Assembly (NCBI GenBank): GCA_951406725.2
Contig: OX597816.1
Coordinates: forward strand, 95,604,001 to 95,668,000
DNA from: Octopus vulgaris
Taxonomy: Eukaryota
Direction of reading: 5' to 3'
Length of the DNA stretch: 64,000 bases
This document shows, in pieces, positions 8,597-30,713 of this stretch. Both the position numbers and the translations under genes were made by a program. Below the pieces are notes generated by a model. It was not told where the DNA came from and searched no databases. It saw only the letters and a list, made by a program, of their open reading frames with translations. Position 1 is the stretch's first letter. Every line of letters starts with the position of its first letter.

Positions 8597-8679
8597 GTTC
8601 CGCTTCATTAAGCGGATACGAAACCTAGATTTCAAAGCAAACCTTTTTAACTAATTGGCCATACTGCACCTGAAGTAGT

Positions 8680-8796
8680 GTGCACAGCACCTAGGTTTCC
8701 CAGGTGGTCACTCATCTAAGTACTAATCTGGTTCGACGTTGGTAAACTTCTGTAACCGAATGACAACCAGAATGTTCAACTGATATGGATGTAAGC
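8680..8796 (-). pseudogene. 5S rRNA pseudogene (full length, decayed)
   Basis: Minus strand GCTTACATCCATATCAGTTGAAC...GAAGTTTACCAACGTCGAACCAGATTAGTACTTAGATGAGTGACCACCTGGGAAACCTAGGTGCTGT is colinear with metazoan 5S rRNA. Many differences are transitions consistent with CpG decay; box A and box C are mutated. Confidence 0.85.
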
Positions 8797-25163: not shown

Positions 25164-25238
25164 CATATCTTGCAAACAACTTGCACATGCAAGTGCTACA
25201 AGTTAAAAGCTCCGTTTATCGGAAGCTAGGAAGTGTAT

Positions 25239-25328
25239 GGGGTCATCAGGGGAAAATGCGCGTCGTTTCGGGGCCTACCTCTCGACGGCATCAATGCGCA
25301 CCGGCCCCCCTCACTGATATGAAGCCCC
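25239..25328 (-). ncRNA. Candidate permuted/pseudoknotted hammerhead ribozyme in HERO 3' UTR, copy 1
   Basis: Minus: GGGG-CTTCA TATCAG TGAGG-GGGGCC-GGTGCGC-ATTGAT-GCCG-TC-GAGAG-GTA-GGCCCC-GAAA-CGAC-GCGCATT-TTCCC-CTGATGA-CCCC. Core intact; single mismatches in stems I, III and the inserted hairpin. Confidence 0.55.
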
Positions 25329-27096
25329 GCTTGCTAGATCAGCTGGTTATGAAGAACTCAATATACTTCTAGCCATCGCTCATCGTCTCTTTTTAACCAA
25401 ATCCAGTGGCTAGCCTTCTCCACTGTAGATTGGATATCAGTCATGGTGGTATTGACTTTACGATGAGTTAGGCCTAACGTCGTCTTACGCTGTGTCCTAC
25501 AAACCCTCTACATCCGACTTCGATAGGAAAATGTTCCGCTTTCCAGCCTGCGTCTTCACATTCCTCGAGGAGGTTTTCATAACGGTTTAATTTTCGAGCT
25601 CGAGCGGCGTCCATATTAACTTCGTGAGGAGCCGTTATCTCGACTATATTTACAACTTTCTTTCTTTCACACCACATCAAAATATCAGTTTTTCCGAAAC
25701 TAGGATGGGAAAGAAAACCTGGCACCCAGGTAAATCTGCAGTTACCTCCCAATAGCCGTTCCACTTTTCATTTTTCTCAGGAAGTTTCTTGGTCTTCTTC
25801 TTGAAACGGATCTGCTGACCTGGTCGCACGAAGGTAATGAACTCTCTTGATGGTACTTTTAACGATTTTTTCTGTGTTGTTGAGATGAATTTGGTTCTTT
25901 ATAGCATTGAAGATAACCTTAAGGACCGAGTTGTGCCTCCATGTGTACCTGTTCAATGCTAATGAACAGTTGGAAATAATATGTTTTAGTGTACCGACCT
26001 TTCCACATTTGAAGCTGTCATTCTCTAAGACGTTCCATCTTACTAGATTCGTAGGTGATGGCAAAACATCATAAGATGAACGAATCAGGAAACTCAGCCG
26101 AGATGTCGTCCACTTCCACATCTCATCCCAACTTATCTTCCTCTCCTCTCAACAACATGTTTTTCCCATCTCGTCATCTGACCTTGATGAACACATCGGA
26201 TCAAATGAAGCTCTTTTCTCTCTGCTTCTCTTGTTTTGACGCTGTTGCTAACAACAGATCTGCGTTCACACGGCATCATGCTTGCAAACGGTCTGAACTG
26301 ATCTGCGCCCGAACCAAATTCTTTCCGATGGTTCTGCGTTGCTCCCACCATATCTCTGTGTATAAGAGAAGACAAGATGTTGTCAGTTTCTGCTTCTGCT
26401 TTCCATTTCCTGGCTGTTTTCACCTCTGGTGGGTTACGCCTGATTTCCATATCCTTCGATTCTCTCAGCATCATGACCGTCCGTATCTTTCCCAACTTAT
26501 ATATTTCGACTATTGATGCTATTGGTAACTGCAACGAACCTCTTTTACGATAAAGAGCTGAGCTGTTCAACATACGAGGTAGACCTAGCCACTTTCTAAT
26601 GAACACATTACATTTTTGTTCAATCTTTTCAACTCGTGACAATGCTACTTCGTATATTAAAAGTGGCCATGCAAGTCGCGGGTACAAGCCGAACTGCAAG
26701 CACCAAATTTTATATTTACCTGGTAACTTCGAAACATCAATCGCTGATAACCCAGCCTCGGCCTGTTTCATCATTTCAATCCCACGACTTCTGTCTGACA
26801 ATGTTCCAGCGTGTACTCGTCCCAAGCTCTTGACGGGCTCTTCCTTGACTGTTGGAATGCTTTCTTCAGATATTCGAAATTTAAATTCTTTCTGCACTCC
26901 CTTAACAAATGTCAGACTACGCGACTTTTTTGCTCTAAATCGCATCCTTGACCACCTTACAATCTCAAAAGGGCATTCTGCATGATTTGTTTATCTGTAG
27001 CTAGAAGTGTCACGTCATCCATGAAGGCTTTCTTAGGCGATTGTACATGGGCGATTTGTTCCGAAAAATCTACACCTTTCAAAATCAACTCCATGA

Positions 27097-29262
27097 CTAA
27101 GATAAACCACGTGACAGATATTGTATAATAATGTTCGTCCTTCGGTTCGAAGATGACCAACTGACATCATCTGATGGAACTGGCACCATGAGACCGGAGG
27201 TGGCTGGTGAGGCCAATCCGGGCAAGGAAGCCCCTCCCACAGGTGGGGCAGAAGTGGGTAGGGGCCGTGCTACTGGTGCAGGCGGCTCTGGCTTTACGCA
27301 TCTGACGTTTCTGATCCGCTGACCGAATCCGTCCCTCCTCGGCTGTCCCTGCTCCCACGTCTCTGTTCTGATGGAGAAGTCTTTGAGAGAGACCTTGAGA
27401 CTATCCTTGTAGCGCTTCTTCTGCCCTCCGACTTTGCGCCTGCCCTGGCCGAGTTCACCGTAGAAGACCTGTTTTGGGATGCGAGTGTCGGACATGCGGG
27501 AGACGTGGCCCGCCCATCTCAGCTGGGCCTTGCGCATGATTGTGATGGTGCTAGGGAGATCTGCCTGCTTCAGAACTTCCGTGTCTGGGACTTTGTCCTG
27601 CCAGCGGATGTGAAGGAGGTTCCGAAGACACCTGAGATGGAAGTGGTTTATCTGGCGCTCGTGCCTTCGGTAAGCAGTCCACGTCTCGCAGCCGTATAGT
27701 AGGGTGGTAAGCACGACTGCCCGGTAGACTTTCAGCTTGGTGTTGAGGCTGATTCCTCTCCGCTCCCAGACTTTCTTTCGCAGTCTCCCAAACGCGCTGC
27801 TTGCCTTGGAGATTCTGTTGATGGTTTCAGCATCTATGTTGGCATTGCAGGAGAGAGTGCTACCCAGGTAGGTGAAGTTTTCCACCACTCGTAGGATCCG
27901 TCCGTTCACCCTTATCTGAGGCTCATGGTATTGTTTGCCGGGGGCTGGCTGAAACATCACTTCGGTTTTCTTGGCACTGATGGTGAGACCGAAGTTGTCA
28001 CAGGCTGATGAGAACCTGTCCATCTCGAGCTGCATCATCTGCTCATCGATTGTACAGCCAGCAGCAATGCCAACCTCCAATCGGTGCCAATTTGTTGTAA
28101 AATTTCCAGTTGTAAACCTCATTTCGAAACTGTCATAGTACATCCTCATTATTTTGATCACTTTGTCAGGAATGTGGAAGTGGTCCATGGCTGTTATTAG
28201 TAATTTGTGTGGCACTGAACCATACGCGTTAGCTAGGTCGAGCCATACCACGTTCAGACTTTTCTTGTTCTGTTTGGCATCCTGGATCGCTTTCCAAATC
28301 GAAAAACAGTGTTCAACGCATCCAGGGATCCCGGGGATTCCGGCCTTTTGAACAGATTCATCAACATATCCGTTACTCCGTAAATATGCCACTGTTCTCC
28401 TCGACAGAATTCCCATAAAGATCTTGCCTTCCACATTCAATAAGGATATCGGCCTAAACTGTTTTATGGTCTTTGCATTGGCCTCTTTCGGCAGGTATAT
28501 ACCTTCTGCCTTACACCAATCCTCTACTATAGTCTCCTCGCGCCACAGTTGTCGGATTAGGACGAAAAGCTTCTTTCGCAGACGATTGCAGTACTTGTAG
28601 ACTTTATATGAGACGCCATCACCTCCTGGGGCACTCTTTGTTCTAGCTTTTCTTACGAAGTCATTCACCTCTCTCTCCCTGATGTCCCCTATCTGGAATT
28701 CGATATCAGGTTCTGAGAGATGATTTAACCCATGTAGAGGTGGCAGCGGCTGGTTACGGTGCGGATCGCTGTAGGTTTCCTTGATATGAGCATCCAATTC
28801 TTCTTTAGTGCACGATAAAGTACCACTCTTCGGTTCAGTGAACAGATTCTTAGTAAACCCGTACGGGTCCTTCAGAAACTGCCCCCGAGTCCTTTTACTT
28901 TCTTTTCGACGCTCATATCGGCGGATATGTCGTTGCACATAACGACATTTCCTCTTCAAATCGTTATACAGCAACGCAAGGCCACGTTTCTCATCTAGTG
29001 CAGCACATGTCCATCGCTTTTTTAAGTTTGACTTTTCCTTCCTCAACTGCTGCATTTTTCTGATCCTCCTGCTTGGTCCACACTTTCCTTTCTCTAGTCG
29101 GATATTCTCTTTTATAACGAATAAATCTTTTCCTATATCGTATATTGAGCTTGATAATTTTCCCAGTTTCTCCACTGTAGAGCCTGTCATTTTATAAAGA
29201 GCCCGACAAACCTTGTTTTCAAACTCTTTATATTTCACTTTCTCATTAGCAGCAGGCCACAA
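27097..29262 (-). pseudogene. Chimeric 721-aa ORF: HERO N-terminus/RT motifs up to B fused in frame to RTE RT C-terminus; lacks the catalytic YxDD
   Basis: HERO sequence ends at ...LEVGIAAGCTI and continues as DEQMMQLEMDRFSSACDNFGLTIS...FTYLGS...LRWAGHV...RIPKQVFYGEL (RTE). Confidence 0.85.
27126..28048 (-). mobile_element. 5'-truncated RTE-clade LINE, 923 bp, 6-bp TSD ATTGTA
   Basis: ATTGTA at 27120-27125 and 28049-28054; removing the insert restores HERO AGCTISVTW. RTE thumb motifs, C-terminal CPTCGRGFLARIGLTSHLRSH, 3' end GTCATCTTCGAACCGAAGGACGAAC plus ATT tail. Confidence 0.92.
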
Positions 29263-29687
29263 AACCCTCGGTTTCCTCTGAGTATTATCCGATGCACCAG
29301 TTTCATGACTTGTAGTTTCATCACGTGAAGAGTTCTCTGCTTTAGCATTTATCGATCCGCTGTGGTTTGAGTCCGGAGATGATTTGCCACGTGTTTTACG
29401 ATCTGACGATCCACACTGCTCTGTCCTCTCTCACAAGTCTTTCCCTGATGTATCTTCAAGCCTCTCTCAGTTGCAAAGGTTCTATAGCACAGCTTGCATC
29501 CAAAGTTGTTTGCATTTCGTTCGCTGTTCGAATTAATAATCATGTTCGTTTCCAAGGTCATTCCCGTGCAGACTGGGTTTGATTGATTCTCGACTTTCCC
29601 CTCTCGGCCAATCGTGGGGCTGTCATTTCCTGTTATTTCTGTTACAATAAAATACAGAGGCGAGGATCGTAAGTCCGCAGCCTCCGC

Positions 29688-29802
29688 CAGTCTTTCCTGT
29701 TGTCGATAGTCTTTCCTATTGTCCGCTGGTCTTTCCGAGCAGTCCTCTTGTCTTTCCAAGATGCCTAACCGTCTTTCCGGTTTGTCAGTGGTTACCTACC
29801 AC
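29688..29802 (-). promoter_or_regulatory. Array of five GAAAGA-loop hairpins (plus a sixth unrelated hairpin) in the HERO 5' region
   Basis: Minus strand: AACCG-GAAAGA-CGGTT, TCTTG-GAAAGA-CAAGA, GCTCG-GAAAGA-CCAGC, ATAG-GAAAGA-CTAT, CAG-GAAAGA-CTG at ~20-nt spacing; GTGGT-AGGTA-ACCAC upstream. Confidence 0.75.
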
Positions 29803-29815
29803 AAGGTCTTAGATG

Positions 29816-30713
29816 TCTTGCAAACAACTTGCACATGCAAGTGCTACCAGTTAAAAGCTCCGTTTATCGGAAGCTAGGAAGTGTATGGGGTCATCAGGAG
29901 AGAATGCGCGCCGTTTCGGTGCCTACCTCTCGACGGCATCAATGCGCACCGGCCCCCCTCACTGATATGAGGCCCCGCTTGCTAGATCAGCTGGTTATGA
30001 AGAACTCAATATACTTCTAACCATCGCTCATCGTCTCTTTTTAACCAAATCCAGTGGCTAGCCTTCTCCACTGTAGATTGGATATCAGCCATGGTGGTAT
30101 TGACTTTACGATGAGTTAGGCCTAACGATAACAACAGTCGTCTCACGCTGTGTCCTACAAACCCTCTACATCCTACTTCGATAGGAAAATGTTCCGCTTT
30201 CCAGCCTGCGTCTTCACATTCCTCGAGGAGGTTTTCATAACGGTTTAATTTTCGAGCTCGAGCGGCGTCCATATTAACTTCGTGAGGAACCGTTAGCTCG
30301 ATTATATTTACAACTTTCTTTCTTTCACACCACATCAAAATATCTGGTTTTCCGAAAGTGGGATGGGAAAGAAAACCTGGCACCAGGTAAATCTGCTGTT
30401 ACCTCCCAATAGCCGTTCCACTTTTCATTTTTCTCAGGAAGTTTCTTGGTCTTCTTCTTGAAACGGATCTGCTGACCTGGTCGCACGAAGGTAATGAACT
30501 CTCTTGATGGTACTTTTAACGATTTTTTCTCAGTGTTGTTGAGATGAATTTGGTTCTTTATAGCATTGAAGATAACCTTAAGGACCAAGTTGTGCCTCCA
30601 TGTGTACCTGTTCAATGCTAATGAACAGTTGGAAAGAATATGTTTTAGTGTACCGACCTTTCCACATTTGCAGCTGTCATTCTCTAAGATGTTCCATCTT
30701 ACTAGATTCGTAG
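29816..30713 (-). mobile_element. Second HERO 3' end (knuckle + RLE + 3' UTR) fused head-to-tail to the 5' end of the full copy
   Basis: Direct repeat of 25168-26054 with scattered substitutions and a ~12-bp indel. ORF 30006-30383 KPDILMW...IELTVPHE...EVGCRGF...HWIWLKR. Confidence 0.92.
29887..29976 (-). ncRNA. Candidate permuted/pseudoknotted hammerhead ribozyme in HERO 3' UTR, copy 2
   Basis: Minus: GGGG-CCTCA TATCAG TGAGG-GGGGCC-GGTGCGC-ATTGAT-GCCG-TC-GAGAG-GTA-GGCACC-GAAA-CGGC-GCGCATT-CTCTC-CTGATGA-CCCC. Predicted cut after GUC (29932|29931); one mismatch in stem II. Confidence 0.6.

Follow-up and report, generated by a model that had tools for sequence, protein, structure and literature searches.

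A tandem array of linker-hairpin units in the leader of Hero-type retrotransposons resembles the flavivirus GACR-sHP interlock

The window analysed here, a 64,000-nt stretch of Octopus vulgaris DNA, contains on its minus strand a Hero-type RLE non-LTR retrotransposon unit that is preceded by part of a second lap of the same element. The features referred to below are located as follows.

25165..29810, minus strand: Hero-type RLE non-LTR retrotransposon unit with C2H2 finger, RT and endonuclease
25239..25328, minus strand: the other copy of the predicted hammerhead, within the 3' UTR; its stems I and III have decayed
27126..28048, minus strand: insertion inside the RT gene, ~920 nt, 3' part of another LINE, absent from other copies
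29688..29704, minus strand: unit 5, GAC linker, stem CAG/CTG (CCAG/CTGG in most copies), loop GAAAGA
29706..29723, minus strand: unit 4, GAC linker, stem ATAG/CTAT, loop GAAAGA
29725..29744, minus strand: unit 3, GAC linker, stem GCTCG/CCAGC with one C-C mismatch, loop GAAAGA
29746..29765, minus strand: unit 2, GGC linker (29765-63), stem TCTTG/CAAGA, loop GAAAGA
29767..29786, minus strand: unit 1, GAC linker (29786-84), stem AACCG/CGGTT, loop GAAAGA (29777-72), from sequence and fold
29788..29802, minus strand: head hairpin ("hairpin 0"), stem GTGGT/ACCAC, loop free to vary, adjoining the first linker
29806..29816, minus strand: position of the 3' ends of inserted copies (27 ends at +1 to +10), the putative start of reverse transcription
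29811..30713, minus strand: partial second lap, repeating the 3' terminal part of the element (endonuclease end and 3' UTR) ahead of the unit
29887..29976, minus strand: predicted non-circularly permuted hammerhead, in the duplicated 5' part

The window copy of the unit is broken by frameshifts, stops and an insertion; the intact copy L035 comprises 3,738 nt with a single frame of 1,175 amino acids. Domain searches of the Hero ORF returned RVT_1 (E 2e-11) and a weak match to zf-C2H2, corresponding to an N-terminal finger, and the C-terminal region is presumably the endonuclease, as judged from its motifs. The LINE inserted in the RT gene, which we take to be RTE-like, is bordered on the minus strand by a 6-nt duplication. 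The RT itself matches HERO-1_BF and HEROTn motif for motif when compared by eye with a published supplementary alignment (PMC7650587). The second-lap duplicate ahead of the unit measures ~900 nt. In genome G000, a first search gave ~1,400–2,300 candidate matches to the element's 3' end versus ~100 to its 5' region, and most Hero copies there are 5'-truncated. No target-site duplication was seen by eye in the printed flanks of the G000 copies.

All five GAAAGA hairpins that the initial annotation had placed at 29688 to 29802 on the minus strand are present. The octamer GGAAAGAC starts and ends at 29778-71, 29757-50, 29736-29, 29716-09 and 29697-90, with a spacing of 21, 21, 20 and 19 nt, and occurs seven times in the window against 0.74 expected, a count reached in 0 of 100 shuffles. 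That description was incomplete in two respects. Each hairpin is preceded by a conserved linker, GAC in four of the five units and GGC in one, which had been overlooked and belongs to the functional unit; furthermore, the array opens with a sixth hairpin (29802-29788), whose loop differs from the others and whose stem is CTGG/CCAG in most relatives. When the array was folded alone (111 nt), all five hairpins were predicted (z −3.35, 0/200 shuffles), and in a 371-nt context the lowest-energy fold retained two of the five (z −0.89). The C-C mismatch of unit 3 lies beside the closing pair and is common to most young, closely similar copies, the same position being paired in several older ones. 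Hairpin 5 has lost one pair in the window copy, and single units may be lost or mismatched elsewhere (copies L015 and L426).

The open reading frame at 29349-29759 was said to read through the array. Among intact copies, the frame is open across the array in L035 and L036, but not in L038 and L039; as the frame is not conserved among copies, a coding role for the array was rejected. The first in-frame ATGs of the window copy are found at 29561 and 29543, about 125–145 nt beyond the end of the array. Simple tandem duplication, already considered insufficient in the initial annotation, was likewise rejected, since TRF detects only 2.5 copies and the stems covary. No Rfam family reached its gathering score for the window region or for the arrays of 18 loci. 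Elsewhere in the window, at 8679-8796 on the minus strand, Rfam recognized a degenerate 5S rRNA copy (43.7 bits), probably a pseudogene or the head of a SINE.

Relatives were collected with an alignment of 36 proteins as the query, and the best 80 of 338 metagenome loci, together with nine loci from two other collections, were retained. Leaders of at least 150 nt were available for 45 loci, which with the window formed 41 clusters. The initial annotation had proposed inspecting the 5' ends of HERO elements in other species, and this check succeeds: Hero-type relatives with ~33–58% protein identity carry the array in their leaders, and it is real and deeply conserved in these elements. Its consensus unit of ~20 nt is made up of a (U)GAC or GGC linker, a 3–5 bp stem whose sequence is free and the loop G-A-R-A-G-(A/U). 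The leaders (15,085 nt) contain 44 matches to the motif GGARAGWC, with none on the opposite strand, compared to 25 matches in ORF sequence totalling 199,703 nt; at least three further pairs surround the motif in 31 of the 44 leader matches versus one of the 25 ORF matches. Among 39 distinct arm pairs, 83% are paired over three positions, compared to 45 ± 4% after shuffling of the arms (0/10,000), in a test that takes no account of relatedness among these pairs. A strict loop match was obtained in only 21 of 40 relative leaders and at least two matches in 14; many of the leaders without one are truncated or carry 7-nt loops.

A search that ignored the loop sequence covered 26 array regions at 24 loci, which were chosen by head motifs tuned by eye. 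A G-N2-3-AG(A/U) loop was present in 50 of 80 such matches compared to 15 of 1,139 in ORFs. In the 53 hexaloops, chance hairpins included, the prevailing bases were G at position L1 (45), A at L2 (42), A (33) or G (16) at L3, A at L4 (43), G at L5 (47) and A at L6 (36), the last being U in nine. L5 is hence the most conserved position and L3 the most variable one. The closing pair is G-C in 43 of 53 hairpins, and the next pair shows all four Watson-Crick types. A GRC linker lies 3–6 nt ahead of the closing G in 46 of 49 hairpins outside ORFs versus four of 29 ORF matches. Of 50 linkers, 40 are GAC and ten GGC, and the fourth linker base is a purine in just 28. The loop had been called invariant, which holds within the window family but not across relatives, where it varies. 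Calling the stems fully covarying was likewise too strong: they compensate across relatives, but in the window copy hairpin 3 carries its mismatch and hairpin 5 lacks a pair. As the array, its loops and its compensating stems are kept across distant Hero-type elements, it is under selection as a single-stranded structure.

Predicted folding energies were less distinctive among the relatives: eight folds at other loci (seven Hero arrays, one viral) gave weaker z-scores than the window array, and the arrays of the six relatives among them reached only −0.05 to −1.9, with frequent pairing across units. A second conserved hairpin-like block, CCCC...CGAGAG...GGGG, was noticed downstream of the array and close to the ORF start in the leaders of L057, L062, L083, L102, L103 and L118. 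Hero-like ORFs were also encountered in bacterial MAG or isolate assemblies (L128-L133), mostly on short contigs, and are probably contaminating host DNA. A pattern search for derivatives in G000 gave 124 matches compared to six for the control. Nine unusual stretches among the 100 matches listed were inspected, and no non-autonomous derivative carrying the array was found among these nine; seven are older or decayed copies of the window Hero lineage, and two are without similarity to Hero. The literature searched does not describe the array in Hero, although a prior mention is possible in Fell et al. 2025, in Repbase or in the supplements of the interlock preprint cited below.

Rows of short hairpins with a fixed purine-rich loop are familiar from boxB/GNRA loops and from CsrB-type and MS2-type arrays, which, unlike Hero, are not known to carry an upstream docking trinucleotide. 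The boxB/GNRA-like fold first suggested for the loop is displaced by a closer known counterpart that includes the upstream GAC, namely the GACR-sHP interlock. This tertiary fold of mosquito-borne flaviviruses was described in 2026 on the basis of SHAPE mapping and is known from Zika, dengue and yellow fever viruses (bioRxiv 10.64898/2026.09.23.753880). According to that preprint, there is mutual protection between the upstream GACG and positions 5-6 of the loop, L3 is variable and G5 critical, and the interlock is suggested to form alone, without other structures. It lies in the 3' UTR, acts on replication, restrains long-range pairing and genome cyclization, and has a second function left unexplained there. 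A Zika primer, UUGAC-GCUG-GGAAAGAC-CAG, represents this flavivirus 3' small hairpin and contains the very octamer of the octopus array (PMC10470596). The octamer also occurs in the A2058 region of 23S rRNA (PMC12116650), which was treated as a coincidence.

The two structures have in common a GAC directly 5' of the hairpin, a stem of 4–5 bp with a G-C closing pair and free outer pairs, and a hexaloop with G1, A4, G5 and A6, of which G5 is the most conserved and L3 variable. Loops are longer in the JEV group (PMC7118588), and Hero likewise has 7-nt loops. The upstream GAC, the hexaloop with G at L5 and the stem with its G-C closing pair are all found in Hero, and the GAC probably makes the tertiary contact with the loop that defines the interlock fold. 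The purine of GACR is the point that argues against the match, given its frequency of 28 in 50 Hero units; in flaviviruses this fourth base is additionally constrained by pairing with the 5' cyclization sequence (bioRxiv 10.64898/2026.09.23.753880). Hero, in contrast to the flavivirus sHP, also permits GGC, U at L6 and other closing pairs. The contexts differ as well. The flavivirus hairpin is a single copy before the 3' stem-loop and overlaps the cyclization sequence, neither of which applies to Hero, where two to five tandem copies stand in the leader. The Hero unit works like a flavivirus sHP but is not one, and the array is a tandem variant of a motif so far known as a single flavivirus element.

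Units of the same kind were found outside retrotransposons. A two-loop pattern matched at least 120 viral loci, 98 of them distinct among the matches listed. Both hairpins were formed in 23 of these 98, and the linker, which the pattern did not request, was present in all 23 compared to 12 of the 75 loci without hairpins. A second viral pattern gave 72 loci, 13 with a hairpin, and no Hero-like RT was detected within 1.5 kb of these 72 matches. In phages, two-unit arrays lie directly 5' of tRNA genes on the same strand (L176, L229, L291 and L311), and a phage tmRNA (L177:1316-1657) has a pair of GAC-hairpin units in the part that follows its tag. Arrays of two to six units stand upstream of phrog_13908 genes (L232, L251, L258 and L289), at 6–20 nt before the gene start in L232, L258 and L289. 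Additionally, four RNA-virus-like contigs (L233, L209, L221 and L278) carry two to four units ending 17–38 nt before an AUG. L233 encodes a helicase (PF00910) and L209 a weakly matching capsid (PF12264), L221 and L278 are related to each other, and no RdRp was detected in the two virus records checked. Judged by their placement, these four arrays are candidates for part of an IRES. The main text of the interlock preprint does not mention phages, retrotransposons or picorna-like viruses (bioRxiv 10.64898/2026.09.23.753880).

The positions just before the AUG in RNA-virus-like contigs and before phrog_13908 genes would suit a role in cap-independent translation, in which the row would recruit ribosomes or initiation factors to an uncapped Hero RNA (5'-OH or circular); an RNA processed by a ribozyme is in fact expected to be uncapped. 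The distance of ~125–145 nt between the Hero array and the first ATG speaks against such a role, as do the copies that precede tRNA genes or lie within a tmRNA and the position of the flavivirus motif in a 3' UTR with an effect on replication (bioRxiv 10.64898/2026.09.23.753880). We consider this explanation unlikely for Hero.

The occurrence of one motif in phages, RNA viruses and retrotransposons could also reflect a host factor common to bacteria and animals, with EF-Tu/eEF1A as the candidate, for which the row would be a platform and which would act as a cofactor of reverse transcription, translation or stability. The phage copies beside tRNA genes and in a tmRNA are in line with this. On the other hand, recurrent RNA modules commonly do without a shared protein. 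A minor eEF1A site has been located in the West Nile sHP, where the loop G is needed (review PMC3917430), but the RNAs in those eEF1A assays did not include the GACR, and the main binding site lies in another place (bioRxiv 10.64898/2026.09.23.753880). A host factor is likewise unlikely on balance.

A protein-free function is conceivable too, with self-locking units acting as an insulator that keeps the ribozyme and the priming gap foldable and accessible, similar to the restraint of cyclization in flaviviruses. The reported ability of the interlock to form alone and to restrain long-range pairing (bioRxiv 10.64898/2026.09.23.753880), the tmRNA units behind the tag and the loss or mismatch of single units in L015 and L426 are compatible with it. 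Any stable hairpin would suffice for insulation, but most units have retained both loop and linker despite deep divergence, and the arrays are predicted to cross-pair and not to be especially stable, which renders this function quite improbable.

Lastly, DRACH, the m6A motif, is often matched both at the end of the loop (AGACH) and in the linker (UGACH), so that a cluster of methylation sites might be considered, or an operator repeat at the DNA level. The GGC linkers and the U at L6 remove the A in question in ten of 50 and nine of 53 cases, respectively, the phage copies are without such a reader, and complementary stems of free sequence do not suit a double-stranded DNA site. Both possibilities are highly improbable.

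The setting of the array in the element bears on its function. A hammerhead is predicted in the duplicated 5' part, with the cut between 29932 and 29931, GAAA at 29917-14, CUGAUGA at 29897-91 and a stem II partner upstream. The predicted cut lies 145 nt before the first linker in the window copy, compared to the ~150–240 nt by which the array had been placed downstream of it, and 103–152 nt before it in the ten loci showing both elements. Of 47 tails from relatives, counting near-duplicates, 34 have a recognizable hammerhead core in the order S-G-C; an upstream strand closes stem II in 31 of the 47, and the strand directly after CUGANGA does so in none. L097 and L109 kept the units, and no hammerhead core was found in them. 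The predicted fold carries two extra helices, and its stem II is completed from upstream. The type-SGC hammerhead HRIMA-1 (PMC10085705) shares the block order and the short linker between stems I and II, and differs in the strand closing stem II, which follows CUGANGA there. For type-SGC hammerheads, none was found in known genomes according to the same report (PMC10085705).

The 3' ends of insertions keep a narrow register to the array. In six Hero families they lie ~4–7 nt before the head hairpin. Five related families have them 13–15 nt before the first CAGUGAC, equivalent to 4–6 nt before the head hairpin, and one cross-family pair (81% identity) gave a distance of 23 nt to the first CAGUGAC. 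In the window family, where the head loop is longer, the distance to the first CAGUGAC is ~15–24 nt. In G000, the 27 3' ends at +1 to +10 have a median of ~7 nt before the head hairpin, and at tandem junctions the sequence at +1 to +10 continues unchanged into the array.

At the other end, 39 copies were evaluated (the 40 best matches holding the ORF start, one duplicate dropped). The unit boundary is passed by 19 of them, and 15 also pass the predicted cut, the longest extending more than 1.1 kb; none starts within 10 nt of either point; among 30 sampled copies, one (L452) starts exactly at the predicted cut. As these copies run past both boundary and cut, their template had no end at either point and was a circle, an uncut multimer or the result of repeated template jumps. 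The positions of the copy ends suggest that the template is a continuous RNA, circular or multimeric, and that reverse transcription likely begins within it, immediately 5' of the array. Starts inside the array were seen in nine of 39 copies versus 4.5 expected (P 0.04, post hoc). Of four such copies in G000 (L404, L408, L425 and L406), three independent ones have their first base exactly where the loop of unit 3 begins, and the fourth where the loop of unit 1 begins, a weak lead to a possible RT stop or cut within the loops.

A comparable geometry has been reported for the Penelope element PAc, whose RT starts internally, 85–92 nt past the hammerhead cut, and requires a further ~55–60 nt of RNA on the 3' side of that start; cleavage was dispensable in vitro (PMC11167929). 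Penelope shares with Hero the partial-tandem copies, the hammerhead, the start inside the RNA and the RNA 3' of it; it differs in its RT class and its GIY-YIG endonuclease, and the account given in PMC11167929 describes no hairpin array. R2 is, like Hero, an RLE non-LTR element in which structured RNA positions the RT, although its pseudoknot lies 5' of a priming point at the RNA 3' end (PMC12222951), whereas the Hero structure is 3' of a putative internal start. Because Hero matches the Penelope geometry with the array in the 3' position, the array can be read as a protein-bound device that sets the start.

Our favoured, still tentative model by analogy is that the row of interlocks serves as a platform for the Hero protein and sets the start of reverse transcription just upstream of the array. 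The initial annotation had proposed a protein-binding platform, and the fixed register to the insertion 3' ends supports this part as a candidate. In the model, a read-through transcript would be cut by the hammerhead and the resulting unit-length RNA circularized; alternatively, an uncut multimer would serve. The GAC would dock on positions 5-6 of its own loop, and the Hero protein would bind the resulting rigid row 3' of the start site. Target-primed reverse transcription would then be primed in the short gap ahead of the head hairpin; the RT would copy the whole unit, reach the array last and might continue into a variable part of the second lap. Several observations weigh against a platform for this protein. 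Phages and RNA viruses use the motif without it, so that a host ligand or a protein-free role would be equally natural, and the picorna-like units 17–38 nt before an AUG point to translation. Moreover, the element closest to the start site is the head hairpin and not the array, and this hairpin could be sufficient to set the register; the arrays of relatives fold with weak z-scores and cross-pair.

In a wider form of the model, which is doubtful as a whole, the interlock would be a recurrent RNA 3D module of retrotransposons, phages and picorna-like viruses with one ligand common to bacteria and animals, and in Hero it would fix an internal start of reverse transcription on a circle made by the ribozyme. 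The natural interlock variants outside flaviviruses, numbering in the hundreds, offer covariation data and harmless models for studying the structure and its ligand. The Hero array offers one specific candidate mechanism by which an R2-like RT might begin copying within a continuous RNA, a point of relevance to RLE-based tools for gene insertion. If true, the interlock would not be a flavivirus speciality, and an internal start on a ribozyme-made circle would be a replication route undescribed for R2-like LINEs.
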